Sequence record: NC_054895.1
DNA: 48,466 nt
Reading direction: 5' to 3' (one strand)
Origin: Escherichia phage vB_Eco_SLUR29
Shown piece by piece: positions 4,204 through 27,467 of this stretch (the stretch's first letter is position 1; each line of letters opens with the position of its first letter). The notes below the pieces were generated by a model that was given only the letters and a program-made list of their open reading frames with translations, did not search any database and had not been told where the DNA came from. The translations under genes and the position numbers were made by a program.

Positions 4204-4222
4204 TTTTAACAAAAAGTGCTAT
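4204..4222 (-). promoter_or_regulatory. conserved early element, minus-strand copy, with stem-loop AGGGCA/TGCCCT
   Basis: reverse complement exact 19-mer followed by hairpin with TGGTAAAGT in loop; precedes gene 3934..4146. Confidence 0.55.
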
Positions 4223-5442: not shown

Positions 5443-5512
5443 TGTGATTTCCTCTTGATTGTTGATGTGCGCATTATAGCGGGGCCGATAACCCCGCGTT
5501 TAGCAATTCGTG

Positions 5513-6817: not shown

Positions 6818-6836
6818 TTTTTGCAAAAAGTGCTAT
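6818..6836 (-). promoter_or_regulatory. degenerate minus-strand copy of 19-mer element with stem-loop GGGCTT/AAGCCC
   Basis: reverse complement ATAGCACTTTTTGCAAAAA; TATAGT in loop; ACAACAAACGAGGA leader; contains TAG stop of lipoprotein gene. Confidence 0.5.
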
Positions 6837-7105
6837 TTTGTCTCGACGGTCATATGTTCTGTCTTCGTGCCTTTGCCATTGCTTTTCGACACTTCCCAGC
6901 TAGTAGCGCCCTTGCAGTTGGTGAAGTAAACAGTGCGATCGTCATAGAATCGGTAAACGGTGCAACCGTCAGCGGTGAATAGCTCCCTTACGCTGTAGTC
7001 ATCGCCAGGGTTAGCCATCTGCACATTGCCAACATGCGCGCCATCTTCTTTGCATCCGGTCAGGAATGCCATTGCCGCCAAAACGCTGATTAATGCCTTT
7101 TTCAT
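6833..7105 (-). CDS. lipoprotein (lipobox LTGC)
   Basis: signal peptide plus LTGC lipobox; 90 aa; AGAGGA SD. Confidence 0.55.
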   Translation of the reverse strand: MKKALISVLAAMAFLTGCKEDGAHVGNVQMANPGDDYSVRELFTADGCTVYRFYDDRTVYFTNCKGATSWEVSKSNGKGTKTEHMTVETK

Positions 7106-7569
7106 TGCTCTTCCTCTTTGATGATTTCGCGGATCATATCCTGGTAGCGGCTTACGCCCTCACAAGCTCCAGCCAGTTTATCCCCTTCCAGGTCAACGAT
7201 ATTCGGGATTGCTGCCAGTATGCGATCGGCAAACTTTTTGATCGCCCTTGCCTTGATGGCTGGCAATTCTTCGGGTGTGATGATTTTCCTTTTCGATTCG
7301 CGGACCATGCGGAAAACGTAAAATTTATCATCTTCCGTTTCCTCTACCTTGATGCTTACCCGACCTGCGGCCATTACTTCTGGAACGCGGTTGATAATGG
7401 TCCGGCTGTAGGATGAACTGCGCGTGATCTTGTAGCAGTCGTCACCGCTTAACATTCCGGCCAGGTCAATTAGTGACATTTTATACTCTTCAATATCGCC
7501 ACTAGCCAGGCGGCGACCAAGCTCGCGAAGCCAATCGCAATAGTCCTTAGTGGTCTTCTGTTCCATTTC
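7102..7569 (-). CDS. hypothetical protein (155 aa, MEQKTTKDY...)
   Basis: first gene of leftward early operon; GGAGGAAAGG SD; consensus sigma70 promoter immediately upstream. Confidence 0.55.
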   Translation of the reverse strand, partial: EMEQKTTKDYCDWLRELGRRLASGDIEEYKMSLIDLAGMLSGDDCYKITRSSSYSRTIINRVPEVMAAGRVSIKVEETEDDKFYVFRMVRESKRKIITPEELPAIKARAIKKFADRILAAIPNIVDLEGDKLAGACEGVSRYQDMIREIIKEEEQ

Positions 7570-7597
7570 CTTTCCTCCAGTTGTTGACTGTTGGCGC

Positions 7598-7625
7598 ATT
7601 ATAAAAGCTATTTGGTGCGTGTCAA
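7598..7625 (-). promoter_or_regulatory. sigma70-type promoter (TTGACA-16-TATAAT) for leftward early operon
   Basis: minus-strand TTGACA at 7625..7620 and TATAAT at 7603..7598 with 16-nt spacer, about 30 nt upstream of ATG 7569. Confidence 0.6.
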
Positions 7626-8180: not shown

Positions 8181-8199
8181 ATAGCACTTTTTGTTAAAA
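8181..8199 (+). promoter_or_regulatory. conserved 19-bp early element ATAGCACTTTTTGTTAAAA, copy 1 (PeSL-like)
   Basis: exact 19-mer; -10-like TACATT 22 nt after TTGTTA; CATCGAAACGAAC leader; precedes gene 8265. Confidence 0.6.
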
Positions 8200-8264: not shown

Positions 8265-8567
8265 ATGATTAACATGAACCTGTTCACCGCTAAAGACCAC
8301 GAGAATATGGCAGCACTGGCTGACCTGTTCGAAACAGCAGAAATGGCTGAACTGTTCATGACTGAGCATGAATTCCAGGACGGCATCAGCAATGCCATTG
8401 AAACAAATTTTGGCGACGCTCGCGTTACTGGTGCAATGTTTGCAAATATCGCGCGTAAATTCTTCCAGGCTTACCGCGACGCTCGCCATGTAAAGGGCAC
8501 GTTTGGATCTGCGAAAGACACCGCTGAAACTATCCGCGCTTACATTGAGCGCCACGCAAAACAATAA
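8265..8567 (+). CDS. hypothetical early protein (100 aa)
   Basis: ORF with GAGGA SD; TAA stop abuts next 19-mer element. Confidence 0.6.
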   Translation: MINMNLFTAKDHENMAALADLFETAEMAELFMTEHEFQDGISNAIETNFGDARVTGAMFANIARKFFQAYRDARHVKGTFGSAKDTAETIRAYIERHAKQ

Positions 8568-8586
8568 ATAGCACTTTTTGTTAAAA
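8568..8586 (+). promoter_or_regulatory. conserved 19-bp early element, copy 2, with stem-loop GGGATAAC/GTTATCCC
   Basis: exact 19-mer; inverted repeat with TGGTATAGT (extended -10-like) in loop; CATCGAAACGAAC leader. Confidence 0.6.
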
Positions 8587-8646: not shown

Positions 8647-8919
8647 ATGAACATCAGCAAAACCACTTTCAGTTTCGCTAAGCGTCACGGTCTGGATCTG
8701 ACTGTTGAAGATTTTGGCGATGTTCTGCAACTCTGCATTTGGGAAGCAGATAACGATTGCGAGTGGCTTTGCTCTTATCGTATCAACTACGATTGCTTGA
8801 CCTGGCACGGCAATATCTATCTGCCGCAAGAAGTGAAAGAAGAGTTGCCAGCGACTATCAACAACGAGGTTTTCTTGCGCCAGGTGCTGAAATTTATCAG
8901 CAAGGAGATCAAGAAGTAA
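8647..8919 (+). CDS. hypothetical early protein (90 aa)
   Basis: ORF with AGGAGA SD. Confidence 0.6.
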   Translation: MNISKTTFSFAKRHGLDLTVEDFGDVLQLCIWEADNDCEWLCSYRINYDCLTWHGNIYLPQEVKEELPATINNEVFLRQVLKFISKEIKK

Positions 8920-9608: not shown

Positions 9609-9872
9609 ATGAAAATTAATGCACCTATTCCAGTTAAGCGCAAAGCACGTTTGCTCAATAACGGGTGTTACGCCCTGCGGCCTGCATTTAAGGATCGCAC
9701 ATTTCCGGTTATCGTTAACGTGTCTCACGTAAGCCGTAGCGGAAACCTGGTATTCGTTAAAGGTGAAGATCTGGCGGCGCTTGGATTCTATGGCGGTGCT
9801 CACGGCGAACCGCTCGGATTCTGGCTTGTAGATCCGTTAACTGGAGAGCGTGAAATCGAATTTCTGGACTAA
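9609..9872 (+). CDS. hypothetical protein (87 aa)
   Basis: strong SD TAAGGAG; TAA stop abuts next 19-mer element. Confidence 0.6.
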   Translation: MKINAPIPVKRKARLLNNGCYALRPAFKDRTFPVIVNVSHVSRSGNLVFVKGEDLAALGFYGGAHGEPLGFWLVDPLTGEREIEFLD

Positions 9873-9891
9873 ATAGCACTTTTTGTTAAAA
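9873..9891 (+). promoter_or_regulatory. conserved 19-bp early element, copy 3, with stem-loop GATGCGCT/AGCGCATC
   Basis: exact 19-mer; TGGTATAGT in loop 22 nt after TTGTTA. Confidence 0.6.
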
Positions 9892-10974: not shown

Positions 10975-10981
10975 TTAATCT

Positions 10982-11003: not shown

Positions 11004-11016
11004 AATGAGGTGAAAA

Positions 11017-11133: not shown

Positions 11134-11354
11134 GTCAGGACGGTTTTTTTGAGCGCCTTCAAATGGCAGAAGATGCCGGGCTAAATAAAGAGTCGGCGCT
11201 TGAAGTGGCATATAAAATTAAGACTCTTGATGAGGCTTTAGGTGATATGGATATGGATCTTGAATCAAGCGCAATATTTGCAGATCCCACTATGATTGTT
11301 AATGATTGTGGATGCGATTTCGATCCTGGTTGTGCGCGCTGTTTTCCGTTTTGA
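11130..11354 (+). CDS. hypothetical protein with C-terminal Cys cluster (CGCDFDPGCARC)
   Basis: 74-aa ORF. Confidence 0.5.
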   Translation: MSQDGFFERLQMAEDAGLNKESALEVAYKIKTLDEALGDMDMDLESSAIFADPTMIVNDCGCDFDPGCARCFPF

Positions 11355-11358
11355 GGTA

Positions 11359-12075
11359 ATGACGATGTATAAAGGTTTAATATTCTCCCTATTTGATGGA
11401 TCTGGTAAAGCCGTTAAAGATTGGGCTGATAATGGCTATAAGTGCATTTGCTTTAATGCTGACGGCGGCGATCACGGTGATTACCAGTCAGTGCGCATAC
11501 AGCATGAGAATATCGAATACGTTAACGTCTGGATTGATGAAAGATTTTACCACCGCGCGCGCTGGGAGGAATGGGGCATTCCTGACTTTATTATGGCATT
11601 TCCGCCGTGCACTGACCTTGCAAATAGCGGATCTCGCCATTGGGCCAAAAAACGCCTTGAGAATCCATCTTTCCAGGATGAGGCCGCCGACACTTGCAGG
11701 ATCGCGGCTGATATAGCTGATTATTTCGGTGTTCCTTACATGATCGAAAATCCGGTTGGCAAGTTGTCAACGTTATGGCGAAAGCCTGATTATACGTTCC
11801 ATCCGTGCGATTACGCTGGCTATCTGCCGGAAGATGATAAACATCCCGACTTCCCTGATATTATTCCGGCGCGGGATCGCTATTTTAAGAAAACATGCCT
11901 CTGGACTGGCAACGGCTTTGTTATTCCTCCACGCGCTTTAATCCTGCCGAAAGAGAAAGACAAAGATAATCCAGGCTGGGCCAAAACTGGCGGCAAGTCA
12001 TCGCGCACAAAGATGATCCGCTCCCTCACTCCGCGCGGCTTTGCTCGCGCCGTCTTTGAGTCAAACTCAAAATAG
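11359..12075 (+). CDS. DNA (cytosine-5)-methyltransferase-like
   Basis: motif I FSLFDGSG, PPC catalytic-Cys motif (FPPCTDL), ENP/ENV-like motif (MIENPVGK); TAG stop lies inside next 19-mer element. Confidence 0.65.
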   Translation: MTMYKGLIFSLFDGSGKAVKDWADNGYKCICFNADGGDHGDYQSVRIQHENIEYVNVWIDERFYHRARWEEWGIPDFIMAFPPCTDLANSGSRHWAKKRLENPSFQDEAADTCRIAADIADYFGVPYMIENPVGKLSTLWRKPDYTFHPCDYAGYLPEDDKHPDFPDIIPARDRYFKKTCLWTGNGFVIPPRALILPKEKDKDNPGWAKTGGKSSRTKMIRSLTPRGFARAVFESNSK

Positions 12076-12090
12076 CACTTTTTGTTAAAA
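12072..12090 (+). promoter_or_regulatory. conserved 19-bp early element, copy 4, with stem-loop GCCAGGT/ACCTGGC
   Basis: exact 19-mer containing stop codon of upstream gene; TGGCATAAT 22 nt after TTGTTA. Confidence 0.6.
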
Positions 12091-12144
12091 GCCAGGTGTA
12101 AAAACCTGGCATAATCACATCGAACAAACAAAGGAGATCTGATC

Positions 12145-12531
12145 ATGAATGTTATCTGTAATGAAACCAACGTATTGATGAAAGGCCGATTTAAAACGGT
12201 TTATCAGAAGATTGCAGGAAGTAATGATGTGATCGAGGTGGAAGAATTCCAGGTTAAGACGCTTGTTAAGGGTAGCCGCTGGCTTCCAGCAAACCGAGAT
12301 GATTACCGCGTCATTAACACAAAAACCGTTCTTTGCAAGTTTGTAGATCATAACATGCCGTGCAAAAAGCACTTTAAGCAGGGAAAGCGATACCAGATCG
12401 AGAAAGGGCGACCGCTTGGAAGCGTTGCGGGTTATGTTTTTGATGAGTGCGGCGACCGCTGGAACCTGTACCGTGAAGAGGTCGGATTCTCTGCTGGCGG
12501 CTGTTATCTTTTTGAGGGTAAATATCTGTGA
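12145..12531 (+). CDS. hypothetical protein (128 aa)
   Basis: strong SD AAAGGAG. Confidence 0.55.
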   Translation: MNVICNETNVLMKGRFKTVYQKIAGSNDVIEVEEFQVKTLVKGSRWLPANRDDYRVINTKTVLCKFVDHNMPCKKHFKQGKRYQIEKGRPLGSVAGYVFDECGDRWNLYREEVGFSAGGCYLFEGKYL

Positions 12532-12749
12532 TAAACAGTGAAAACCGTTACAAAGTAACGAATTCTACCACAAAGACTTTCAAGCCTGGCGATATAGTCA
12601 GGCCCATCAAAAAAACGGCGGTAGGTTGGCTGATTGGTTTTTCATATCATAAGGCTCTTTACTTTACGTTTAAGGATGGGATCATGGGGGAATGCTATAG
12701 CGACCGCCATCCTGATCGACTTCTGGTTGCAATAGAGCGGATCAAATAG
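12528..12749 (+). CDS. hypothetical protein (73 aa, probable GTG start)
   Basis: GTGA overlap with upstream stop; TAG stop inside next 19-mer. Confidence 0.45.
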   Translation: MINSENRYKVTNSTTKTFKPGDIVRPIKKTAVGWLIGFSYHKALYFTFKDGIMGECYSDRHPDRLLVAIERIK

Positions 12750-12764
12750 CACTTTTTGACAAAA
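12746..12764 (+). promoter_or_regulatory. conserved early element, copy 5 (TTGACA variant), with stem-loop GGGCCGT/ACGGCCC
   Basis: ATAGCACTTTTTGACAAAA; TAAAAT in loop; precedes P-loop NTPase gene. Confidence 0.6.
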
Positions 12765-12817
12765 CGGGGTAGTATTGGGCCGTTAAAATTTACGGCCCAC
12801 AAAGGAGAAGCTAACGA

Positions 12818-14398
12818 ATGTTTTCATTAGAAACGAACAAATTAACTCCACAGCAAATAATCGCTATGGCTGAAAGCCAGAACCTTTCACCAGTTCGCGT
12901 ATCAATTCAGGCTAACGGCTATCGCCAGTCGTCCAGCTTTTGGGGCGACGTAAAGGATGTGAATAGCGGTCACGATCGCTACCCCGTTATTTCTCTTGGT
13001 AATGATATTGATGTTGTCGGCAAGTTATCACGCAGCATTGCGCGATCCGTTCAATTCCCTGAATCATCGGCTTACATGCACTTTATCGGCTGCATTTCTG
13101 CCGCTATGCTTGGACGCTTTACGGTTGACTATCACGGAACCGATCAGCCGACTGCGCTTTACGTCGTTACAAGCCAGCCGCCGTCAACTGGTAAATCTGC
13201 GATCAACAGCATGGCTATTGCTCCGATGATTGCGGAAGTTGAGAAGATCAACGAGCAACGCCGCAAGGAAAGAAAGAAAATACAGGCAAAGCTGGCAGGT
13301 CTTGCAAAGGAGATGAAAAGCGAAAGATCCGGCGCTGATATGGAATCTCTATACCAGGAAAAAGAGGATCTGGAGGAAAAGCTGGAAAAAATGTGTGATA
13401 TAACTTTTCCTGTTTCAGATACAACTCCAGAAGGCTTGGCGAAAATCAACAACAAGCAAGGTAACTTTGCCGTAATTTCTGATGAAGCAACAAGTATTAA
13501 CAGTCTGTTAGGTTTGACCTATGCAAATAGCGAAAGGAAGACTAACAGTGAGTTAGTGCTTAAGGCGTGGGATAATGGTCACGTATCAATTGCCCGTGCT
13601 AATGCTGACAATAATATGAGTTTTCGCGCGCTTGGATGTATGAGCGTTATAGCCCAGGATGAAACGATAAGCGGAATCATGGACGCTGGATCGCGAGGCA
13701 TCGGTGTTAGTGAGCGTTTTTTGTTGGTCCGCGAGGAATCATTCTTAGGCCGTCGCTCATTCATTGATGAAAATGGTGATTCTACCTATGAGGCGGTGGA
13801 TTCTGAATTGAAAGCCCAATATTATCAATTGGTGCATAACATCATGAGCGAATCAAATATATCGCTGAAAATAAGCCGTTCAGCTATGCGAGTGCTCAAC
13901 ATTGCTCGCCAGGATATGGAACCGCATCTTGCAGACGGCGGAAAGTATTCTCATACAATGTTACGCGGTGCGCTTGGTAAAATGGATAAACAGGTGATCA
14001 GGCTTGCTTCCGTCCTGCATGTTATCCGTAACTGGTTTAATCCTGCCGGATACCCGCAGAAGTCGAAAGAGATCGACGTGGAAACAATGCAAGAGGCGTT
14101 GATCATGTTTCAGGAATTGAGCAAAACATACATTAGCGCCGCCAATGCTTCTGGTTATGCTGGTGATGATGCTGAAATGGGTAAATTGATTGAATTGATC
14201 ACGAGGCACGGCAAGGCTAACAAAGGGATCCTGAATATTCGCGCCCTGTACGAATCAGCGAGAAAGGTAAAACCTTTCGTTGGTCAGGCTGGCGTAATGA
14301 AAAGGATAGAAGGGCACTTACTGCCAATGCTGGAAGAAAGAAATTATGTTTGTGTGATTAATGGTGTTATTTTTGTCAATCCAATACTGCTGGGATGA
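12818..14398 (+). CDS. P-loop NTPase of unknown function (526 aa)
   Basis: Walker A-like PPSTGKSA and Walker B-like FAVISDEA; strong SD; function not assignable by eye. Confidence 0.7.
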   Translation: MFSLETNKLTPQQIIAMAESQNLSPVRVSIQANGYRQSSSFWGDVKDVNSGHDRYPVISLGNDIDVVGKLSRSIARSVQFPESSAYMHFIGCISAAMLGRFTVDYHGTDQPTALYVVTSQPPSTGKSAINSMAIAPMIAEVEKINEQRRKERKKIQAKLAGLAKEMKSERSGADMESLYQEKEDLEEKLEKMCDITFPVSDTTPEGLAKINNKQGNFAVISDEATSINSLLGLTYANSERKTNSELVLKAWDNGHVSIARANADNNMSFRALGCMSVIAQDETISGIMDAGSRGIGVSERFLLVREESFLGRRSFIDENGDSTYEAVDSELKAQYYQLVHNIMSESNISLKISRSAMRVLNIARQDMEPHLADGGKYSHTMLRGALGKMDKQVIRLASVLHVIRNWFNPAGYPQKSKEIDVETMQEALIMFQELSKTYISAANASGYAGDDAEMGKLIELITRHGKANKGILNIRALYESARKVKPFVGQAGVMKRIEGHLLPMLEERNYVCVINGVIFVNPILLG

Positions 14399-14790
14399 TT
14401 ATGTTTTTGCTTGATCTGTATAAATGGTGTGAGTCATACGATTGGTTTAACAGGCAGCACATAGCCAAATTTATCTATCAGCATAGAGAATGTGAGCGGC
14501 TCGCACGGGCCGCCGGACTTACGCCGCGAATGTTCGCCAGCCTTGCATCTAAGGAATTTTGCGCAAGAATGATGACGGCTGGTTATATAGATGGAGTCTG
14601 CGGAAAATACTGGTCCAAAGGATCGTCAAAGCGGCCTTTCGGATTCGAATTGTATAGCCTGGATGGTATGCGCAACGACTGGATCAGGGATATGGCTAGA
14701 ATAGGGGAGATGGGCGATGATGAATTGTTCCAGGCAAAAGCTAATAGACAAGATCTTGAAGCACTGCGCCGTAAATTCAATCTCACATGA
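14395..14790 (+). CDS. hypothetical protein (131 aa)
   Basis: ATGA coupling to upstream NTPase gene. Confidence 0.5.
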   Translation: MIMFLLDLYKWCESYDWFNRQHIAKFIYQHRECERLARAAGLTPRMFASLASKEFCARMMTAGYIDGVCGKYWSKGSSKRPFGFELYSLDGMRNDWIRDMARIGEMGDDELFQAKANRQDLEALRRKFNLT

Positions 14791-14911
14791 GGATTTTATT
14801 CATGCTTTACTTACGCTACTTTATTCAGATATGCGCGCTTTTAGCACCACTGAACATGTTTTATGCAATGATGATGGTGTATTACTGGTTACGGTAAAGC
14901 GTATGGAATAG
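14717..14911 (+). CDS. possible overlapping small ORF (64 aa)
   Basis: GGGGAGA SD 6 nt before ATG; TAG stop is the TAG of the next 19-mer element, as for other cassette-terminal genes. Confidence 0.3.
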   Translation: MMNCSRQKLIDKILKHCAVNSISHEDFIHALLTLLYSDMRAFSTTEHVLCNDDGVLLVTVKRME

Positions 14912-14926
14912 CATTTTTTGTTAAAA
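14908..14926 (+). promoter_or_regulatory. conserved early element, copy 6 (ATAGCATTTTTTGTTAAAA), stem-loop CCCGGC/GTCGGG
   Basis: near-exact 19-mer; TATATT after hairpin; CATCGAAACGAAAC leader; inverted duplicate of copy at 18151..18169. Confidence 0.6.
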
Positions 14927-14988
14927 CGCCCGGCCTAGTGTCGGGTATATTTGTTTCATCGAAACGAAACAACCAAAAAGGAAAAATT

Positions 14989-15213
14989 ATGTCCAGCAAG
15001 TTTTTAGTAGTTCGCGTATACAATCATGCAAATGGATCTTCTTCTGAAATCCCGACAGTTTACGATAAGGATTCAGGCTGGAGTGAGCAATCGGCGGTTG
15101 AAAATGAGCGCAAGATTGCAGGACTATACGGCGACACTTGCAGCATTGAAGTAAGGAAGTACGACGAATCGAACAAGCCAACAAACGAAAGCCATATGTG
15201 GCCCGACGCATAA
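14989..15213 (+). CDS. hypothetical protein (74 aa, MSSKFLVV...)
   Basis: ATG at 14989 after A-rich leader. Confidence 0.5.
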   Translation: MSSKFLVVRVYNHANGSSSEIPTVYDKDSGWSEQSAVENERKIAGLYGDTCSIEVRKYDESNKPTNESHMWPDA

Positions 15214-15245
15214 AAATAAAGGAGGCGTTAAGCCTCCTTTTTCTT
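15214..15245. terminator. bidirectional intrinsic terminator between convergent operons
   Basis: hairpin GGAGGC-GTTA-AGCCTCC flanked by A-run and T-run. Confidence 0.6.
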
Positions 15246-15623
15246 TTCTATCCAGTAAAGACAAATCAGCACAAGAAACACAACCACGCATATGATTACT
15301 GGATCGTACCATCTCCCGTTATTACGCTGCACGACCTGAATTTTGTCTGCCTTGATGGTATTGGCCTGAATGGTTGATGTTGTGAAATCCTTCTTGCTGG
15401 ACGTGTCCACCTTGTCAACCGCAGATTCCTTTATTGTGGTTTCCTGTTTTGTGCTGGCGTCCTGCCTTGCTGTAATGCCAACTGTCTGCTTCACGTTCTC
15501 CGCGCCAGCCTGCGCTGTGATTTCCGGCTTACTGCCGATTAATCCGGTCAGTGGCGTAACGCTTGAACATCCAGACAAGATCACCGCCATTGCGATTGGT
15601 GTAAGTAAAAATTTCTTCATCAT
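15228..15623 (-). CDS. unimolecular spanin-like lysis protein
   Basis: N-terminal lipoprotein signal (LSGCSS) plus C-terminal TM helix ([16 protein letters not shown]); last gene of lysis cassette. Confidence 0.55.
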
Positions 15624-16111
15624 TTAAGATCCATTGTGCAATATTTGTATTCGACCTTGCGCCTGTTAAGCAAGCCTTTAGACTTCTCTCGCTTTCCTGT
15701 TTTTGGGTTATGGTAATAAGTCCAACGATAAAGCTGATCGCAAGCCTCGTTTAATTTCCCCTGGTTGATGAGTTTCAGCATTGTTGAATTTCTGAAAGCT
15801 CCCACACCTGCATTATAAGTGAATGAGTACATGGCTGCACGCATACTATCGGGAATGTCAACCTTAACTTGCTTGTCAACTTCTTTTTTAGCAACCTGGA
15901 TATGTTTAGCCAACAAAGCATCACACTCTTTTTTAGTGTACGTTTTCCCCAGGATAACATCGGGTCCGGTGATTCCTGCGCAAACCGTCCATACTCCCGC
16001 AATATCTTTGTATGGCTTGTATCTTACCCCTTCGATCTCTTCAAGAAGTGGAGAAGTCAAGGCAACCGCAACGCCAAAGGCCGCCGCCGCTACCCTGTTC
16101 TTTATGCTCAT
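15620..16111 (-). CDS. SAR endolysin (GH24 lysozyme)
   Basis: Gly/Ala-rich N-terminal signal-anchor-release segment; catalytic E-8-D-5-T triad ([16 protein letters not shown]). Confidence 0.8.
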
Positions 16112-16326
16112 TACTTGCCCCTGATCTCAATAGCTTTTTGAATATCACCTTTTTCGATCGCCTCGTGGAATTTTTTACTATCACGCCAGCGAAGGTAAGC
16201 GCCCCACGCACCGAATGCAGCCATTAAAACAAAACTGGCAATAGCAATGGTTAACTGCCCTGTAGCGGCGCTTGCGATAGATGAACCGCCAGATCCGGCG
16301 GTAGCTGCGTTAATAAAATCTTTCAT
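16111..16326 (-). CDS. holin (pinholin-like, two TMDs)
   Basis: 71-aa protein with two hydrophobic segments and charged C-terminus; ATGA coupling to endolysin. Confidence 0.6.
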
Positions 16327-16471
16327 TTTTATTCTCCATATTAATTAAAGTCAATATATTGACCGCATGATAAACGCACATGGTAAAAAATTAAACAAAA
16401 AAAAGAGGCGACAAACGCCGCCCCCTTGCAAGTTTTTGATTTAATTTGTCATTGATTTAAATAAAAATTCA

Positions 16472-17587
16472 TCAATTCATCATTTCTGGATAGTGAACAA
16501 ATCGCCCCACTTCTCCATGCTCTTTGTCGTAAATGATAACCGCCGCACGGCGTCGAGATCTCCAGCCACCTCGCGCGGCGTATGCGTCTTTTGCAGCCAG
16601 GGTGCTATGCACCTCAACGATGCCAAGCGACGTTTCTGTCACGGTCTGGTGATGCCAGTGCCCTACGTGCGCATACATCGTTTTTGAGTTTCCGAAGTCC
16701 TCCCGCCAATCTGACGCGCACATCATTAGCAAAGTCTCCGGTTTACGCACTGTGTGCCCGTGATGGTACGCAAGGAAAGTTTTTCCGTATTGCGTGTGGT
16801 GCACAACGCGAGGGGAAACATCAACGTAAACGCGCGGCTCGTTTTCATATGCTGCCGCCATTGCTGCGCGTAGCCAAATCATTCCTGATTGGTCATGATT
16901 GCCCTCTACGATCTGGACTTCAACATGTTTATGCTTTAACAACATTTTATTGATTGCGCGTCGCATTGCACGGATGGCAACGTAAACCAATTTTGCATAT
17001 CGACTATCTTGATCCAGTACGTGACCGCTTGCAGGTGTAACCGCCTCCAGGCCGTCGCTATGCAGCATATCGCCACCAATCAGGATGACAGCCTTTTCGC
17101 TATCCGGTGCGCACATTAAAGCATAGTCGATAAAGTTATTCATAACGCGCTCTGCCGTGGCAGTATCCCAATTTTCGCCGCATTCGTGCTTATGGGCCAT
17201 AGCGCCTAAGTGCATGTCAAAGATCGGATACAAGGAAAGCGTTTCGTTATAGTCGCGCTCCTGTAATGGGACCGGATCTAATCGCGGAACTTCCTCGCTA
17301 AATGCCTCCATTGCTGCGCGCATTAATGCTTCTAATTGCTCTTTATCCTTGCTGGTTTTAGTCCACTTTAGGATTATGTTGCCTTCTTTGTCAGTCATTA
17401 CTGACTCACCATGAACGCCAAAACCAGGCGCTCCAATGGTGGATACCTGGCCTTGCTTTGCAAGACGCGCCGCGCGACGCTCGACGCTTCTCACATTCAT
17501 TCCGTACTCTTGAGCGATCTGTTTATATGTCTTACCAGCCGCCCGTTCGATCTTGAATTGCTCATCTGTAATTTTTACATTTTTCAT
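16472..17587 (-). CDS. calcineurin-like metallophosphoesterase with N-terminal HTH domain
   Basis: motifs DMHLG, GGDMLHSDG, GNHD, GHWHH; N-terminal HTH-like KTYKQIAQEYGMNVRSVERRAARLAKQ; start taken at internal ATG 17587. Confidence 0.65.
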   Translation of the reverse strand: MKNVKITDEQFKIERAAGKTYKQIAQEYGMNVRSVERRAARLAKQGQVSTIGAPGFGVHGESVMTDKEGNIILKWTKTSKDKEQLEALMRAAMEAFSEEVPRLDPVPLQERDYNETLSLYPIFDMHLGAMAHKHECGENWDTATAERVMNNFIDYALMCAPDSEKAVILIGGDMLHSDGLEAVTPASGHVLDQDSRYAKLVYVAIRAMRRAINKMLLKHKHVEVQIVEGNHDQSGMIWLRAAMAAAYENEPRVYVDVSPRVVHHTQYGKTFLAYHHGHTVRKPETLLMMCASDWREDFGNSKTMYAHVGHWHHQTVTETSLGIVEVHSTLAAKDAYAARGGWRSRRRAAVIIYDKEHGEVGRFVHYPEMMN

Positions 17588-17681
17588 TCTGCTACCTATC
17601 TCATCACTATATGGTACATAACTGTAACAGCGATGATAACGGGTAACGGTAGAACAAACAAGCGCCACATGATAACTATCC

Positions 17682-17924
17682 TCATTTATAATATTTGCGA
17701 GGCTCTCGGATTTTAGCCATTGCCTCTTTGAAATCAATTTTTGTTGGAACTGCTGGAACTCTTACCATTTTTCGCGGCCTTTCCTTGAGGAAAGTCATCT
17801 TGTCGCCGCTAATTATGCTCACATCTGCAATATCAAAGTATTGCGCGATCTTCTTTATGTCGTCGGCAATACCGCATTCTTTAGCGTGATTCCATACCGC
17901 ATCTCTTCCTTGCTCAACCTTCAT
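17682..17924 (-). CDS. hypothetical protein (80 aa, MKVEQGRD...)
   Basis: ORF; GAGGAGG upstream; overlaps stop of preceding small ORF. Confidence 0.45.
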   Translation of the reverse strand: MKVEQGRDAVWNHAKECGIADDIKKIAQYFDIADVSIISGDKMTFLKERPRKMVRVPAVPTKIDFKEAMAKIREPRKYYK

Positions 17925-18093
17925 GCTTATAATATGCCTCCTCTTGTTCAATTGGTGCGTGACCGTATGCAACTTTCAGTAAAAACATTGCGATCTCCCA
18001 ATCAAACTGGAATCCTTCCTTTGAACCGCCATCCACTGAACCTTTTGCCACCTCTTGAGCAAGATTAAAAGCGCGTTTATCGAATACTACCAT
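17914..18093 (-). CDS. small hypothetical protein (59 aa, MVVFDKRAFN...)
   Basis: GAGGA SD; first ORF downstream of 19-mer element at 18151. Confidence 0.4.
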   Translation of the reverse strand: MVVFDKRAFNLAQEVAKGSVDGGSKEGFQFDWEIAMFLLKVAYGHAPIEQEEAYYKHEG

Positions 18094-18150
18094 TTTTATT
18101 TCCTCATGTTTGTTTCGTTGAAATAATTATGCCCGACACTAGGCCGGGCG

Positions 18151-18169
18151 TTTTAACAAAAAGTGCTAT
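18151..18169 (-). promoter_or_regulatory. conserved early element, minus-strand copy; inverted duplicate of copy 6
   Basis: reverse complement is ATAGCACTTTTTGTTAAAA followed by identical hairpin CGCCCGGCCTAGTGTCGGG and CATAAT; contains TAG stop of gene 18166..18405. Confidence 0.6.
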
Positions 18170-18405
18170 TTGATCGCTGAATCGTAAAATTCTTGCAGGT
18201 CTTTAGCAATTATTTCATGCCATTTTTCAAGAGGATGTTTTCTAGTTTCCTCAAAACTCATATCCAGGCAGCCGGAAAACTCCCACAAATCGCAATCAAT
18301 ATATGGCTTAACGAACGAATTTTTTTCCATACAGTCGCACACCATAGCGCGATATAAAAGAAATTCGCCATCCTCATTAAGTAAAACGCTTCTCTCTTTT
18401 TCCAT
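18166..18405 (-). CDS. hypothetical protein (80 aa, MEKERSVLL...)
   Basis: GGAG SD; immediately downstream of Dam gene. Confidence 0.45.
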   Translation of the reverse strand: MEKERSVLLNEDGEFLLYRAMVCDCMEKNSFVKPYIDCDLWEFSGCLDMSFEETRKHPLEKWHEIIAKDLQEFYDSAIK

Positions 18406-18409
18406 CGTA

Positions 18410-19135
18410 TTAACTCCGTTTGCGTGCTCGGCGTTCGGTAACAGAAGGACAAATATCGCTGATCTTAACGTATCGCGTTTTCTGCTCTTCGCCTTCTTTA
18501 AGTTTACGCATGACAAAAATCACGCTCCCCTTATTGTTGCCCTGTACAGGCTCGCCAGTCAATCCAGACACAAAGGCGATTCTTCCGGTGCGGGAATATT
18601 CCACTCCCCCCTCTTCGTAAACCTCGCCAGTGATCCAGATGATTTCAGCCGCGTTTTTCTGCGCCTCATAAAACCATGCTGTAGAGTTGTCGGATGGCAA
18701 CAAAACATCAATTTGGTTGTTGTGCTCCATTTGCTCAATTGCTTTCTTGATAAATGGAGTTGGGTTGCTGTACGGCGGGTTAAGCCATACGTGCTTGTTG
18801 CTACCCCACCAACGCTTTAAGCAGTTTGTTTCCTTGCTATAGAACTTCTCGCAAACTGCGTTTTCCTGGCTTGCTGCCGCGTCGAGATCGTATTCGCCAA
18901 ATTCTGATTCCATCCACTCCACGATCTCTTGAGGTGTGCTCCACATATCGCGCACAACGTCCGGCGTAGTGCTTCCAGCGTATCGGTTGCCGCTTACCTT
19001 ATAATATTGATTTGGCTTTACTGCCTGGTAATGGCCTCCAGTTGCAAGGGCATTCCCTATAAATGTTTCTCTCTCCAACTGCTCAAAGCTAACGAATGCG
19101 TCATGGGTGTCTTTATCTAAAATATCTTTAGCCAT
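18410..19135 (-). CDS. dam: DNA N6-adenine methyltransferase (Dam-like)
   Basis: NPPY catalytic motif (WLNPPYS); 241 aa; GGAGA SD. Confidence 0.75.
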   Translation of the reverse strand: MAKDILDKDTHDAFVSFEQLERETFIGNALATGGHYQAVKPNQYYKVSGNRYAGSTTPDVVRDMWSTPQEIVEWMESEFGEYDLDAAASQENAVCEKFYSKETNCLKRWWGSNKHVWLNPPYSNPTPFIKKAIEQMEHNNQIDVLLPSDNSTAWFYEAQKNAAEIIWITGEVYEEGGVEYSRTGRIAFVSGLTGEPVQGNNKGSVIFVMRKLKEGEEQKTRYVKISDICPSVTERRARKRS

Positions 19136-19199
19136 TTCATTTCTCCGCTATTAAAAGCTATCTCGTGTTATTGAATTATGGCGCAATCCATCGCGCCAG

Positions 19200-19218
19200 T
19201 TTTAACAAAAAGTGCTAT
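19200..19218 (-). promoter_or_regulatory. conserved early element, minus-strand copy, with stem-loop GGCGC/GCGCC
   Basis: reverse complement exact 19-mer followed by hairpin and CATAAT; contains TAG stop of 19215..19634; precedes Dam. Confidence 0.6.
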
Positions 19219-19634
19219 TTAAGCATGTATTCAATAGCCAACTTAAACTGATTAAATCCGTAGGCGACCGCAGCGAATCCTCCTAAGCTGCGAACTCGAC
19301 GCAAAAAAGCCCTTTGTTCATCGCTGACTGGTGATGCTTTACCATTGCCTGATTTATTCACTCGTTTGATCTCAATCGCTGCAAATGGGTATTTTCCGTT
19401 TAAACCAATCAGGATGATGAAATCGCTTACACCCTTAACCAAGCCGGACTGCTGATCAATCATCGCCGTTGCTTTAGACTTCTCATTCTCGTTTACCGTA
19501 TGCCACGCCAGCAAGTAAGGATGAGTATAAGTCAACCACTGAAAGCTATCTATCTGGTGATTAACTTCCTTTCTAGTGTCGGTTGGATCTCTTTCGTAAA
19601 ACTCAAGATAATCTCCTTTATCAGTTATAGCCAT
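19215..19634 (-). CDS. VRR-NUC-like PD-(D/E)xK nuclease
   Basis: 139 aa; D...E.K signature (GVSDFIIL...AIEIK); adjacent to helicase as is common for VRR-NUC. Confidence 0.55.
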   Translation of the reverse strand: MAITDKGDYLEFYERDPTDTRKEVNHQIDSFQWLTYTHPYLLAWHTVNENEKSKATAMIDQQSGLVKGVSDFIILIGLNGKYPFAAIEIKRVNKSGNGKASPVSDEQRAFLRRVRSLGGFAAVAYGFNQFKLAIEYMLK

Positions 19635-21631
19635 TAAACAAACTCCCGTTTTGCAATGTTATCCTCACCTTTGCCGTTTTTGCGATGCGTTACGCGTACA
19701 GGCGGCATGATGTGATGAGCGTATGACATTATTTTACGCGCATTTCTATAGCTCGCCACCATACCAGCAATCTTGCGATCCGGTATGTGCTGCAATGCTA
19801 TTTTTCTCCATATCGTCCTGCAAATGTTGCTTTCTGACTCAGGGAAAAATCTTTCGTATGCCTTGAACGTGTCGCCGTTGGCCTCAAGCTCATAGCAAAA
19901 AATAATTCCTTTCTGGTTTTTCGTCATATCAACGCGGAAAGATTTAACGTTGCACCAATCGTTTTTGGTGTAGTGCTTACCGCTTAACTTCTCGTTAGGA
20001 TCGACAAGAGAAATATCGCAACAACGGCATACTCTCGCCACTACGTCGTTTTTTGTTCCGCAACCGCGCTTGATTATCTTTTTCGTTCTCGGATCTACCT
20101 GGTCCTCGCAAATTCTGTAAGTCCAAAAATGCTCACATCGCTTCCCGTTATCGTCTACGTGCATACATCGGCGAGCGTAAAAGCTGTTTAGCGTTCCACA
20201 TATCGGACAAGTCTTAGGCTCTTTCCCGTTTGTAAATCTCTTTTGGAATTGCGCTTGCTCAAGGATTGGATCGAAATACAAATCACCTAACTCATCCATA
20301 GTACCTGCAAAATCCAATACAAGATGATCTTTTTTCTTGAATCCCTGATCAATGTGCCATTGCTTAAGCAGTCGCATGCCGCGCCCCAAAAGCTGGATAA
20401 GCAATGTTAGAGATCCTATCTTTCTCAGTATTACCGAAGTATCCCAAAACGGAACGTTAACGCCAGTGGTAAGCGCCTGTACCTGGAAGATGTATTTTAC
20501 TTTTCCCTCGTATGCCTCCCTCAGCCACTCTTTACGCTGATTATCTCCAGTCTTGCCAGTTATGATCCTGTATTCAACGCCTGGCGGCAGTGCGGCGGCG
20601 GCCTCCTTGCAGTGCCTTTCCCCTGCGCATGTAACTAAAACTCCGTTCCTGTCTTTGCATATCTCATGGACTTTAGCCATGATTTTCTGTGTCATTGTTG
20701 CGTCTTGATGGATCTTTTCTTCCATCTTGCGCAATGTTTTAGCGTCAAAGTCTGAAACGCCATCCTCGCTACTGGCTTCGAACTCTGAAAGGTCATAACC
20801 CAGGTCGCCTACGTCGCCGAAGTTTGTTGGCACTACCGAACCGAATTTGATTAAGTAGTTTGTGTCTATGTTAGTCACCTGCTCACGCCAGAATCCCTTT
20901 TTGTTCTTATCTTCAACCAGTATTGGAACCACGCCGCGAAATTCAGATCCAGTCATACCGAATATTCGCAATTCGTGCCCGTATGCCTCGCGACACCTGC
21001 GCATCATTTCCATGATTATTACGGTGTACTGTGTGCGTCCTGTTCCGAACATTGGATCGCCATTGGAATCAAATTGCTGTTCTTCTCCAATCAGTACTGG
21101 CAAATCCTTCTTAGTGGTCATCTGCTGGTAAGATTCATTATTTTCTATCGCGTCCGCGAGATCCTCCCAATCCACCTGGTGACATTCATCAATACCGATA
21201 ACGTGCGGAACATAATCACCTAACGACTTAAACAATCCGTTTACTACAGTGCCCTCAGAACCGACCACGATCGGAAAGTATGCGCTTTTTGTTTTCAGTC
21301 CGGCGCAATAGATTGAGTTTGGCACTCCAAGATTGCTGATCTCTTCCGAATCCTGATCAACAATTTCAGCCTGGCGAGCAAGGACCATCATTTTCAATCC
21401 CATTTTTCGGCATTGCGCCGCAACCATCGCAAACATCAATGTTTTGCCAGCCGACACAGAAGCCTTAACAAAGAAAGGATGCTCATAGTTTTTCATGCGC
21501 TTTGCGATCTCGGCATACGCAACGCACTGATAAGGATAAGGCACTATATTGCCAACCGTGAATCGCTCTTGGATGCTTTTTATTACTGCCTCGCCTAACG
21601 CTGATATTTGTTTTTCGATATTTGGAATCAT
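19634..21631 (-). CDS. SF2 DNA helicase with C-terminal Zn-finger region
   Basis: Walker A SAGKT, DECH box, multiple CxxC pairs in C-terminal third. Confidence 0.8.
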   Translation of the reverse strand: MIPNIEKQISALGEAVIKSIQERFTVGNIVPYPYQCVAYAEIAKRMKNYEHPFFVKASVSAGKTLMFAMVAAQCRKMGLKMMVLARQAEIVDQDSEEISNLGVPNSIYCAGLKTKSAYFPIVVGSEGTVVNGLFKSLGDYVPHVIGIDECHQVDWEDLADAIENNESYQQMTTKKDLPVLIGEEQQFDSNGDPMFGTGRTQYTVIIMEMMRRCREAYGHELRIFGMTGSEFRGVVPILVEDKNKKGFWREQVTNIDTNYLIKFGSVVPTNFGDVGDLGYDLSEFEASSEDGVSDFDAKTLRKMEEKIHQDATMTQKIMAKVHEICKDRNGVLVTCAGERHCKEAAAALPPGVEYRIITGKTGDNQRKEWLREAYEGKVKYIFQVQALTTGVNVPFWDTSVILRKIGSLTLLIQLLGRGMRLLKQWHIDQGFKKKDHLVLDFAGTMDELGDLYFDPILEQAQFQKRFTNGKEPKTCPICGTLNSFYARRCMHVDDNGKRCEHFWTYRICEDQVDPRTKKIIKRGCGTKNDVVARVCRCCDISLVDPNEKLSGKHYTKNDWCNVKSFRVDMTKNQKGIIFCYELEANGDTFKAYERFFPESESNICRTIWRKIALQHIPDRKIAGMVASYRNARKIMSYAHHIMPPVRVTHRKNGKGEDNIAKREFV

Positions 21632-21639: not shown

Positions 21640-21668
21640 TTTAAAAAATGCCATTTGGAGTATATAAT
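21640..21668 (+). promoter_or_regulatory. putative sigma70 promoter (TTTAAA-17-TATAAT) for rightward HTH/primase/fiber block
   Basis: hexamers at 21640..21645 and 21663..21668; overlaps face-to-face with minus-strand -10 of the helicase promoter. Confidence 0.4.
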
Positions 21669-21688: not shown

Positions 21689-21707
21689 TTTTAACAAAAA
21701 ATGCTAT
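21689..21707 (-). promoter_or_regulatory. conserved early element, minus-strand copy driving helicase operon
   Basis: reverse complement ATAGCATTTTTTGTTAAAA; TATTAT 22 nt after TTGTTA; about 58 nt upstream of helicase ATG. Confidence 0.55.
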
Positions 21708-21718: not shown

Positions 21719-22195
21719 ATGAAAGATGCACGAATTGCGGTGTCTACGGGTGAGATCGACAAGCGCACTATTAACGGTAACAACGGAACGCGACGAGGTA
21801 AAGACAAAAAGCCACGAAAACACCGAACCGGATTTCTTATCCTGCGAGATGAGGTAAAAGCAAGCCTGAAATCTCGCTTGGATATTCTGATCGAGTATTA
21901 TGGCGGTGTTCCTGCTATGGCTCGACGTCTACGCGTATCTCAGCAAGTCGTTAACCAATGGCGAAAGCGTGGTATGATTTCAGCCGCTGGAGCACAAAAG
22001 GTGCATAACGACTACAAATATAATGGATGCAAAGGATACCGCGCATCATTTTGTCGTCCAGATCTGCGGTTTGATTCTAACGGTAAGCCTCTTACTACCC
22101 GTTGCGACAAATACGAGATGTTGCGCGTAGTCAAAAATTCAGACTACGAACCAGGCGGACGATTCTACAAAGGTGATAACAGCACAAATAGCTAA
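21719..22195 (+). CDS. HTH DNA-binding protein (Cro/YdaS-like)
   Basis: HTH-like GGVPAMARRLRVSQQVVNQWRKRG; GAGG SD. Confidence 0.6.
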   Translation: MKDARIAVSTGEIDKRTINGNNGTRRGKDKKPRKHRTGFLILRDEVKASLKSRLDILIEYYGGVPAMARRLRVSQQVVNQWRKRGMISAAGAQKVHNDYKYNGCKGYRASFCRPDLRFDSNGKPLTTRCDKYEMLRVVKNSDYEPGGRFYKGDNSTNS

Positions 22196-22250
22196 TGATA
22201 AGGCTCAGCGAAATGATAATATTTGCTGGGCTTTTTTATTGAGGTTTGCC

Positions 22251-23250: not shown

Positions 23251-23269
23251 CATTAGCAAAAAGTGCTAT
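23251..23269 (-). promoter_or_regulatory. degenerate copy of 19-mer element (16/19), reverse orientation relative to adjacent + gene
   Basis: CATTAGCAAAAAGTGCTAT directly upstream of SD of tail fiber gene. Confidence 0.4.

Positions 23270-26810: not shown

Positions 26811-27467
<657 letters not shown>

Follow-up and report, generated by a model that had tools for sequence, protein, structure and literature searches.

A repeated promoter/stem-loop module as a proposed context for the conserved 19-nt element of T1-like phages

We propose that a conserved 19-nt element of T1-like phages, ATAGCACnnnTTGnTAAAA, is the upstream half of a repeated ~75–85-nt promoter/stem-loop module that precedes many of their early and middle genes, a reading to which we give a probability of about 65%, with its predicted transcription start, activator-dependent recruitment, insulating hairpin, and module-mediated cassette recombination included. 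The window analyzed here is the whole 48,466-nt stretch of Escherichia phage vB_Eco_SLUR29 (NC_054895.1), a T1-like Warwickvirus with ~98% identity to phage tunus. The repeat itself is already known: the 2024 re-annotation of phage TLS (PMC11447400) gives the same sequence, aaATAGCACnnnTTGnTAAAA, as a "21-nt direct repeat" found also in T1, Rtp, and Rogue1, intergenic, oriented with transcription, and ~76 nt 5′ of start codons, and leaves its function open, suggesting a stoperator, an enhancer site, or a UP element. In a term search of that paper, stop codons did not come up and "recombination" appeared once, in an unrelated sense; its transcription section describes no fixed −10, hairpins, or palindrome; what is added here is the reading as a promoter/stem-loop module. 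For Drexlerviridae, our literature search for mapped transcripts or promoter work yielded the TLS paper only, and for T1-like phages it returned no transcript-end, protein-binding, or reporter data.

Architecture of the repeated module

The window holds 16 clear copies of the element and one degenerate copy; ATAGCAC occurs 19 times against 5.3 expected, and the 19-mer at up to three mismatches 15 times against 0.05 expected. An earlier note, made from the sequence alone, had overlooked two copies, a GAA variant (ATAGCACGAATTGCTAAAC, 5498..5516, −) and a degenerate one (ACAGCACAAATAGCTAATG, 22179..22197, +). The module has a set order. An upstream stop codon comes first and the element next, spanning roughly −50 to −32; 19 nt then lead to a −10 of the form TAnnnT (G at −14), after which come a leader rich in A and C and the ribosome-binding site, and the start codon lies 73–85 nt from element position 1. 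The spacer to TAnnnT is exactly 19 nt in 15 of the 17 listed copies, both variant copies counted (it is 18 nt at 29284, and there is none at degenerate 23251), and in 186 of 232 copies across 11 genomes. When positions 1–4 were left free in the search, they were still A (88%), T (85%), A (92%), and G (91%); G stood at −14 in 84% and A at the predicted +1 in 79%, with T at −15 in only ~37%. The best-conserved positions of the element include GCAC and G13. Judged from sequence, transcription would start at the A of CATCGAAAC, ~51 nt past element position 1. We found the same module in T1 and TLS, and a generic sigma-70 scan misses it.

The copy at 4204..4222 (−) precedes TAAAGT (4179–4184), straddled by its hairpin, and would drive the gene starting at 4146; those at 5498..5516 (−) and 6818..6836 (−) precede TATAAT (5473–5478) and TATAGT (6793–6798). 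The first of the rightward early genes, 8265..8567, would be driven from 8181..8199 (+) through TACATT (8219–8224), a copy with a weak hairpin and without an upstream gene. It is followed by 8568..8586 (+; TATAGT, 8606–8611), 9873..9891 (+; TATAGT, 9911–9916), and 12072..12090 (+), with a hairpin 5′ of CATAAT (12110–12115). A TTGACA variant at 12746..12764 (+; TAAAAT, 12784–12789) would drive the helicase gene 12818..14398, and 14908..14926 (+; TATATT, 14946–14951) the gene starting at 14989. The copy at 18151..18169 (−; CATAAT, 18126–18131) and its hairpin are nearly identical to the 14908 copy and hairpin on the opposite strand. Further right, 19200..19218 (−; CATAAT, 19175–19180) would drive the Dam methylase gene, and 21689..21707 (−; TATTAT, 21664–21669), which has no hairpin, the helicase gene 19634..21631. 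In the degenerate 22179..22197 copy, 19 nt separate the element from TAATAT (22217–22222), 5′ of the primase gene (ATG at 22251), and a variant beginning GTAGCAC at 29284..29302 (+; TATAGT, 29321–29326) would drive a small lipoprotein-like gene (29357..29584).

The three other copies lie beside genes of the opposite strand. The degenerate copy at 23251..23269 (−), with three mismatches and no −10 at the standard distance, adjoins the ribosome-binding site of the plus-strand tail-fibre gene and faces the primase terminator. Two copies are antisense to late genes: 40077..40095 (+), with TAGATT at 40115–40120, adjoins the ribosome-binding site of a minus-strand gene whose start is at 40062, and 43827..43845 (+) lies ~50 nt upstream of a minus-strand late gene taken to be the major capsid gene. 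T1 has, by sequence likeness, a near-identical counterpart of the 40077 copy with similar downstream sequence, antisense to its own late genes, and both T1 and TLS carry an antisense copy similar to that at 43827 just 5′ of their annotated capsid genes.

The hairpins are GC-rich, variable in sequence, and placed just 5′ of the −10 or straddling it. Across 49 non-redundant segments, mean folding energy was −11.6 kcal/mol (mean z −3.2), and 78% of segments reached −8 kcal/mol or lower, compared with 13% of random 37-mers. By scan, two hairpins are terminator-like (14928–14946 and 18131–18149, at the 14908 and 18151 copies), and those straddling the −10 have no T-run after them. The T1 annotation places "terminators" in early-region intergenic gaps, and those at 38973–39001, 39998–40024, and 41980–42007 lie just 3′ of element copies. 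In the window, a hairpin accompanies 10 of 10 copies with an upstream gene and 0 of 2 without one; across genomes the association between hairpins and upstream transcription was not significant (P = 0.19). Such a hairpin may attenuate or insulate against transcription coming from upstream.

Polymerase recruitment and a candidate regulator

Several familiar promoter readings do not fit the element. TTGTTA does not serve as a sigma-70 −35, since its distance to the −10 is 22 bp throughout and the 16–18-bp range offers no fitting hexamer. On the reverse strand, GTGCTAT fails as an extended −10: the hexamer ends without the final T, and a −35 is missing at any workable distance. A sigma-54 promoter (TGGCAC-N5-TTGC, strictly spaced at −24/−12, with no −10 hexamer) differs in spacing from the element, which reads TAGCAC-N3-TTG with TAnnnT 22 bp later. 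The T4 MotA box is another sequence and sits near −30. A host regulatory motif does not fit either: the exact 20-mer occurs in just 7 of ~185,000 species genomes, as single scattered matches.

The element also holds an imperfect palindrome, TAGCA-N5-TGYTA, whose center at position 9 would fall near −42 if transcription starts at position 51, as predicted. At least four of its five positions are matched in 110 of 127 modules; as one consensus whose arms measure 5 bp and match fully in the TTGCTA variants only, it could be chance. With TTGnTA, 22 bp from the −10, too far away for a sigma-70 −35 and the palindrome near −42, a dimeric DNA-binding protein is the probable recruiter of host RNA polymerase. 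In class II activator-dependent promoters, lambda cI at OR2 activates PRM from a site centered at −42, and CRP and FNR act from −41.5. The likeness lies in a roughly palindromic site near −42 over the −35 region, combined with a good −10 and no usable −35; the element differs in that its palindrome is imperfect, its center depends on a predicted start, and its binding protein is a candidate only.

That candidate is a Cro-like helix-turn-helix protein of 158 aa (21719..22195, +), the only annotated transcriptional regulator, which might bind the element. The 5′ end of the 21689..21707 copy lies 11 nt from the start codon of this divergent gene, and the window shares with T1 and TLS a conserved element copy beside this start codon. 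A host-type promoter-like site for the regulator gene, TTTAAA-17-TATAAT (21640..21668, +), has a −10 that overlaps that of the divergent helicase module. Canonical sigma-70 promoters are few in the early region, as the TLS authors likewise found (PMC11447400). One perfect consensus, TTGACA-16-TATAAT at 7598..7625 (−), is from its sequence the likely immediate-early promoter of the leftward early genes. The families of the first early genes (7102..7599, 6833..7105, 8265..8567, and 8647..8919) are all of unknown function, with no alternative regulator among them. As a dimer at a class II activator position, the Cro-like protein may recruit host RNA polymerase. We tentatively put forward an extended version, possible but short of probable, in which the repeat is the operator of this conserved protein: bound at −42, it would turn on phage-specific promoters consisting of a −10 only; reversed copies, located at its own gene and at the tail-fibre and two late genes, would let it repress or time these; and the same module would be the shuffling unit of the early genes.

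Host RNA polymerase might manage without a phage protein if the element were a UP-like A/T-rich stretch (TTTTnnnAAAA) joined to an extended −10, a possibility raised by the TLS authors (PMC11447400). Its T-tract and A-tract do resemble the UP consensus, and G at −14 in 84% of modules suggests the extended −10 type. UP elements, however, are A/T-rich, lie at −60 to −40, and need no specific G or C; here the element lies at about −50 to −32, its most conserved positions, also in the TLS logo (PMC11447400), contain G and C (GCAC and G13), and T at −15 is infrequent, so we regard this explanation as rather doubtful. More improbable is that the copies are stoperator-like, sites at which a phage repressor blocks elongation or silences genes, as the TLS authors suggested by reference to the repressor sites of the temperate mycobacteriophage L5 (Brown et al. 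1997, as cited in PMC11447400). In both systems a short asymmetric site recurs many times, as oriented copies within short intergenic gaps; here some of them overlap stop codons, and the reversed copies adjoin the regions where the regulator, tail-fibre, and late genes start. L5 sites, however, work independently of a promoter, with no fixed downstream −10 or start codon, and a roadblock site needs neither; typical window copies all have a promoter-like partner at fixed distance and a start codon within 73–85 nt, and these phages, TLS included, are described as virulent in that paper. We give as little weight to punctuation at the RNA level, by which the A/U-rich element and hairpin would form a processing or termination signal and the edge stop would keep a terminating ribosome, with its footprint of ~15 nt downstream, off the hairpin. 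The distance from stop to hairpin is about one ribosome footprint, the hairpins are strongly non-random, and few genes read deeper into the element; yet the stop falls at position 15 in eight families and is read past in five more, the full element is kept in copies without an upstream gene, the −10 and G at −14 are promoter features at the DNA level, and no Rfam family or tRNA match was found.

Stop codons at the edge of the element

In 10 of the 10 clear window copies that have a co-directional upstream gene, that gene stops at −3..+4 of the element, seven times by a TAG at positions 2–4 and three times by a TAA abutting the element or overlapping it by one base. The earlier note had observed all but one of these stops, and the ORF table agrees: the TAG in ATAGCAC ends the cytosine methylase gene 11296..12075 and ORFs 12528..12749 and 14717..14911 on the plus strand, at the 12072, 12746, and 14908 copies, and on the minus strand 6833..7105, 18166..18516 (18166..18405 with the shorter start), and the VRR-NUC gene 19215..19634, at the 6818, 18151, and 19200 copies. 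The TAAs of 8265..8567 and 9609..9872 abut position 1 of the 8568 and 9873 copies, and that of 4222..4512 (−) shares position 1 of the 4204 copy. Gene 5513..6103 stops at the TAG of the overlooked 5498..5516 copy, and the regulator gene's TAA (22193–22195) forms positions 15–17 of the degenerate 22179..22197 copy. All the ORFs whose stops the earlier note listed are annotated in tunus except 14717..14911, a doubtful gene that overlaps a ydbL-like gene and is annotated in FritzSarasin and BEK26 only. T1 and TLS show the same edge-stop pattern.

Grouping the C-terminal ends of upstream ORFs from 11 genomes, T1 and TLS included, gave 71 families, some of them spurious ORFs. Of these, 29 have a stop codon that begins at position 2, 8 one at position 15, and 18 one at −2/−1, with third-frame read-through in 5; ORFs entering the element thus use its frames unequally (29:8:5; chi-square ~24, 2 d.f., calculated from these counts). 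AAA directly precedes the TAG in 20 of the 29. By a rough gene call, the element supplies 5 of 9 TAG stops in the window, 9 of 11 in FritzSarasin, 5 of 9 in T1, and 6 of 11 in TLS. The TAG is nevertheless kept in 92% of copies without an upstream gene compared with 90% of copies with one, so that it does not serve as gene-end punctuation, as the earlier note had held. Because it is equally conserved with no gene before it, and lies within a palindrome half, stop use is opportunistic. Genes would be packed against a sequence that cannot change and whose first in-frame stop is the TAG, and the A-rich flank (aaATAG) provides Lys-TAG or TAA. On this sequence evidence the stop overlap is a side effect, yet in the genomes counted it accounts for roughly half, if not more, of the TAG stops.

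Cassette exchange and comparison with known systems

We compared the window with six close relatives for breaks in homology. Alignment pieces overlap exactly on the element at 6817–6838, where tunus, BEK26, tonnikala, and tonijn carry 2.8–3.1 kb more, and at 9872–9891, where three phages carry an additional 486 nt; a longer-module overlap spans 9866–9943, and the 9873..9891 copy is the junction of 486-nt and 648-nt cassette insertions in relatives. Conversely, a 387-nt cassette of the window (8181 to 8568) is missing in five relatives, with the join falling inside the shared leader CATCGAAACGAACCGC. Chimerism is visible in the junction sequences. In BEK26 a 458-nt insertion occupies the leader of the 19200..19218 module, and gene replacements in relatives begin at 29377, just past the 29284 module. 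Pooled break ends number 22 at positions −2..1, 12 at 19..21, and 0 at 2..18. These edge peaks, together with the visibly chimeric modules, support recombination between modules; a homology boundary at the edge of a conserved element is expected under any mechanism, and the direct support is the chimeric indel junctions only.

The modules are not the only places of change. They hold 20–38% of break ends against 3–5% expected by length, and 60–80% fall elsewhere, at inserted HNH endonucleases, at exchanged tail fibres, and at ordinary gene junctions with microhomology deletions. Against a junction-matched null, breaks occurred at 19–45% of module junctions versus 16–29% of junctions without a module (Fisher P 0.04 to 1), so that breaks are only ~1–2-fold more frequent at module junctions than at the other gene junctions. 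The repeat is thus one of several recombination substrates and not cassette-exchange punctuation. The earlier note had proposed a combined gene-end and gene-start punctuation through which cassettes are exchanged: for a subset of events this stands, with edge breaks, chimeric junctions, relatives' indel breakpoints in the 19-mer (6817–6838 and 9872–9891), and an inserted cassette in tiwna whose last gene ends in the element's TAG, but as a general rule it does not, and it missed the promoter of which the element would be the upstream part. Because the module recurs ~16–20 times per genome, it would offer 19–80 nt of homology. An Erf-like annealing protein (26811..27464) and an exonuclease VIII (27801..28856), encoded within 26811..28856 on the minus strand, form a plausible phage recombination system that could act on short repeats. 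Cassettes of a promoter plus one or more genes would be deleted, inserted, or replaced at modules with upstream reading frames left intact.

Compaction alone is an alternative, in which the element is simply a promoter element and stops reach its edge through tight packing and the first-stop rule, with no special role in exchange. The TAG is conserved irrespective of upstream genes, genes everywhere are separated by minimal space, break frequency at module junctions does not significantly exceed that at other junctions in most references, and microhomology-flanked deletions arise at ordinary junctions too. We nonetheless consider compaction alone unlikely: the crossover of three indels is confined to the 19–22-nt element and that of others to the longer module, modules are visibly chimeric, break ends meet the element's edges and never its interior, and both the frame use and the AAA before TAG exceed random packing.

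For the promoter/stem-loop module we propose, the closest known system is the PeSL (promoter-early stem-loop) cassettes of T4-like myoviruses (Arbiol et al. 2010, PMC2839356; Comeau et al. 2014, PMC4122927), which have the same architecture and a role demonstrated experimentally (PMC2839356); promoter and terminator activity and the formation of mini-circles are among their traits. Both are composite intergenic motifs that open with an upstream stop in an A/T-rich stretch (here at −3..+4 in 10 of 10) and close with a ribosome-binding site and start codon (here at 73–85 nt), both combine a promoter with a stable stem-loop between −35 and −10 or over the −10, two placements also seen here, and both are repeated before small genes of unknown function in a variable region, with indel and replacement junctions of close relatives inside the motifs (here at the ~1–2-fold excess given above). 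Unlike PeSLs, which have a canonical sigma-70 −35/−10 at 16–18 bp below an A/T-rich region, the T1-like module has a specific conserved 19–21-mer with G/C positions and a −35-like hexamer 22 bp from the −10; it belongs to siphoviruses of another family, Drexlerviridae, and its promoter and terminator activities are predicted ones.

T1-like phages are common laboratory contaminants and phage-therapy candidates, and their transcription programme is essentially unmapped; the TLS authors count the function of the repeat among the open questions of the field (PMC11447400). The repeat now has a concrete model with coordinates, comprising a promoter half-site, a fixed −10 distance, a predicted start, a candidate binder, and a putative insulating hairpin, and the operator reading, if true, would answer the question posed by the 21-nt repeat. 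Under the model, promoter/stem-loop cassettes that act as substrates of recombination, described for T4-like myoviruses, would also occur in an unrelated family of siphoviruses, and it may help explain the exchange of small early genes, often anti-defence genes.

Stop codons at the early-region element

ATAGCAC occurs 19 times in the window against 5.3 expected, and the 19-mer element ATAGCACTTTTTGTTAAAA is found 15 times with at most 3 mismatches against 0.05 expected. The earlier note reported stop codons of upstream genes embedded in this element, an observation that we confirmed and that holds across the phage family. The ORF table places TAG stops at element positions 2-4 for ORFs ending at 12075, 12749 and 14911 (+) and at 6833, 18166 and 19215 (-), with a TAA adjoining the element at 8567 and 9872 and another overlapping its first position at 4222. 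These ORFs are annotated genes in Escherichia phage tunus, except 14717..14911 (+), which overlaps the 3' end of a ydbL-like gene by 74 nt and may not be a real gene, because it is annotated in only 2 of the relatives examined. A looser pattern added a copy with a GAA centre at 5498-5516 (-), whose TAG ends gene 5513..6103, and, at 22179-22197 (+), a degenerate one in which an internal TAA terminates the regulator gene. Of the clear copies preceded by a co-directional gene, 10 of 10 have the stop of that gene at -3 to +4.

Tunus (Drexlerviridae, Tempevirinae, Warwickvirus) matches window bases 8000-20000 at 98.5% identity over 98% of the length, and some 60 further T1-like phages match at 95-99%. 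Methylases, helicases, a primase and the lysis genes are encoded in the early region (~2100-23200) among small genes whose function is unknown, and from about 30600 onward the minus strand carries the structural genes. The same elements are present in MG065667 and MG065680, unverified and unannotated records titled 'Campylobacter phage A127/A113' that are 77-80% identical to the window and belong to T1-like Drexlerviridae, so that their Campylobacter host label looks doubtful.

The module, in which the element is followed by a spacer, -10 hexamer, hairpin, leader and start codon, recurs in T1 (21 copies) and TLS (19 copies). Grouping the C-terminal ends of upstream ORFs from 11 genomes gave 71 families, some of them spurious ORFs: the stop begins at position 2 (the element TAG) in 29, at position 15 (the element TAA) in 8, and at -2 or -1, abutting or overlapping the element, in 18, with third-frame read-through in 5. 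Frame use by ORFs entering the element is therefore 29:8:5, where random entry would give equal thirds (chi-square ~24, computed from these counts). An AAA codon precedes the TAG in 20 of the 29 families, and thus the 'aa' in the published 21-mer falls partly within coding sequence. By a rough gene call, the element accounts for at least about half of the TAG stops across these genomes. Because the TAG is kept equally in copies without an upstream gene (92%) and with one (90%), it is conserved for the element's own function rather than for gene ending.

Predicted promoter anatomy, hairpins and a candidate regulator

Exactly 19 nt separate the element from a TAnnnT-form hexamer in 15 of the 17 listed copies, both variant copies included; copy 29284 has 18 nt before such a hexamer, and the degenerate copy 23251 has none at that place. 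Module hexamers are TATAGT, CATAAT, TATAAT and similar, and 186 of 232 copies across 11 genomes satisfy the spacer and TAnnnT rule. Among 127 unique modules, found by a search that left positions 1-4 free, A1 is present in 88%, T2 in 85%, A3 in 92% and G4 in 91%, with a G two bases 5' of the hexamer (-14) in 84% and an A at position 51, within CATCGAAAC, in 79%. This A is the likely start site as predicted from the sequence; downstream of it come an A/C-rich leader and a ribosome-binding site, and the start codon lies 73-85 nt from position 1. Numbered from this A as +1, the element covers -50 to -32, and the 22 bp between its TTGnTA and the -10 are too many for a normal sigma-70 -35.

A scan for generic sigma-70 promoters did not detect the modules. 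It returned TTTAAA-17-TATAAT ahead of the regulator gene and, in a divergent intergenic region, a perfect consensus promoter (TTGACA-16-TATAAT, 7625-7598, -) that probably drives immediate-early transcription of 7102..7599 and 6833..7105, two leftward genes of unknown function. At 21640-21669 the regulator -10 (TATAAT, +) overlaps the helicase-module -10 (TATTAT, -), and these back-to-back promoters could compete.

Nearly every module carries an inverted repeat between element and start site, variable in sequence, with a stem that either stops at the -10 or extends across it. The 49 non-redundant 37-nt segments had a mean folding energy of -11.6 kcal/mol (mean z-score -3.2), and 78% of them reached -8 kcal/mol or lower versus 13% of random window 37-mers. 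Two module hairpins were detected as terminator-like, and the T1 annotation lists 'rho-independent terminators' in early-region intergenic gaps, 3 of them just 3' of element copies. Within the window, a stable hairpin is present in 10/10 modules with an upstream co-directional gene and 0/2 without (8181, 21689); across genomes this contrast was not significant. A second repeat family of GC-rich hairpins with T-runs (AAAGGGGCGCAAGCGCCCCTTT-like), between late genes at 26786, 29590, 30534, 40138, 42461 and 44676, consists of ordinary intrinsic terminators.

Within the element, positions 2-6 (TAGCA) and 12-16 (TGYTA) form an inverted repeat centred on position 9, about -42, which is perfect in TTGCTA variants and matches at 4 or more of 5 positions in 110/127 modules. 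A palindrome centred near -42 is the arrangement seen where a dimeric helix-turn-helix activator binds at a class II position, and the element may be such a site. The exact 20-mer is nearly missing from bacterial genomes, which argues against a host regulon site. A weak Cro-like helix-turn-helix motif is found in the only annotated regulator, encoded at 21719-22195 (+), which shares 50-58% identity with its T1 and TLS counterparts; in the window, T1 and TLS an element copy lies on the opposite strand, 11-12 nt from the regulator's start codon. Its motif and gene context make this protein a candidate binder of the element.

Three reversed copies adjoin the ribosome-binding site of an opposite-strand gene: 21689-21707 (-) faces the regulator gene (ATG 21719), 23251-23269 (-) the tail-fibre gene (ATG about 23288) and 40077-40095 (+) a late gene (ATG 40062). 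The regulator-gene arrangement is repeated in T1 and TLS, pointing to a possible operator or autoregulatory role. Copies at 40077-40095 (+) and 43827-43845 (+) run antisense to late genes, and both have a -10-like hexamer at the usual spacing. Similar antisense copies, which may correspond to the window sites, occur in T1 (18850 and 15086, -) and TLS (15042, -), with one in each phage just 5' of the annotated major capsid gene; such copies could drive antisense transcription or serve as late-gene operators.

Test for recombination at modules

The earlier note proposed that cassettes are exchanged by recombination within the repeats. Tunus, tiwna, FritzSarasin, BEK26, tonnikala and tonijn served as relatives for comparison with the window. 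At 6817-6838, where relatives are 2.8-3.1 kb longer, and at 9872-9891, where 3 phages carry 486 nt extra, the overlap between alignment pieces coincides exactly with the element; for 2 phages with 648 nt extra the overlap spans a longer module (9866-9943). A 387-nt cassette (8181-8567) is missing in 5 relatives with its junction in the shared leader, and BEK26 has a 458-nt insertion within the leader of the 19200 module. Chimeric modules mark these junctions: the window 9873 module joins a tiwna left flank to a tiwna right flank, the 6818 module has the upstream flank of one tunus copy but, from a second copy, the 3' variant (GCAAAAA) and the sequence downstream, and the single tonnikala module has its 5' part from the 8181 module and its 3' part from the 8568 module. 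The cassette inserted in tiwna, too, closes with a gene whose stop is the element TAG.

With each genome as reference, modules hold 20-38% of unique break ends versus 3-5% by length (P 1e-6 to 1e-9), and pooled break ends number 22 at -2 to 1, 12 at 19 to 21 and 0 at 2 to 18. Breakpoints at the element are thus borne out by edge peaks, element-sized overlaps and chimeric junctions, yet most break ends lie elsewhere: at HNH endonuclease insertions (11362-12529, 14751-15218), which account for several element-unlinked break points, at a tail-fibre replacement (23589-26280), and at deletions at ordinary gene junctions flanked by 4-16 nt microhomology. By approximate gene calls, breaks affect 19-45% of junctions with a module versus 16-29% without (Fisher P 0.04 to 1). 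The modules are therefore one recombination substrate, neither the sole nor a strongly preferred one; exchange through the repeats accounts for a real subset of events. The Erf-like annealing protein and exonuclease VIII of the phage may plausibly use them.

HNH homing-endonuclease genes of relatives are inserted into the methylase and helicase/ydbL regions or next to them (e.g., BEK26 16363-18350, tonnikala 7597-8242). Some relatives have lost single small genes at 10150-10417, 10410-10635 and 27464-27722, at junctions with 4-16 nt microhomology and no element. The lateral tail-fibre gene, where replacements between relatives are most frequent (23589-26280), has tandem in-frame 21/63-nt repeats at 23719-23904 and 25562-25684. 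A near-identical 38-nt stretch comprising the element and the hairpin cgcccggcctagtgtcggg occurs in opposite orientations in modules 14908-14951 (+) and 18126-18169 (-); this inverted repeat, ~3.2 kb apart around the lysis genes and an exonuclease gene, could be an inversion substrate.

Relation to published elements

A 2024 re-annotation of TLS described 18 intergenic copies of aaATAGCACnnnTTGnTAAAA, oriented along transcription ~76 nt 5' of start codons, recorded the repeat in T1, Rtp and Rogue1, and listed its function (stoperator, enhancer site or UP element) among unanswered questions (PMC11447400). A term search of that paper found stop codons unmentioned and 'recombination' once, in an unrelated sense; a literature search for transcript mapping in Drexlerviridae found none.

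The closest known match of the T1-like module is the promoter-early stem-loop (PeSL) cassette of T4-like phages. PeSLs begin with an upstream stop codon in an A/T-rich stretch, contain a sigma-70 promoter whose stem-loop lies either between -35 and -10 or across the latter, and end in a ribosome-binding site and start codon; they have shown promoter and terminator activity and mediate modular shuffling (PMC2839356, PMC4122927). The T1-like module resembles them in layout, hairpin placements, variable early region and junction pattern, but differs in phage family, in its specific 19-21-mer at -50 to -32 and in having no canonical -35. By analogy, we class it as probably working like a PeSL, with a different type of promoter.

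The element itself was already published; new here are the anatomy of the promoter, a palindrome with its centre at -42, statistics on hairpins and stop codons, and the PeSL analogy. Together, these results partly support the recombination idea of the earlier note, and the overlap of stop codons is best explained as a side effect of genes being packed against, and now and then recombined at, a constrained promoter half-site.
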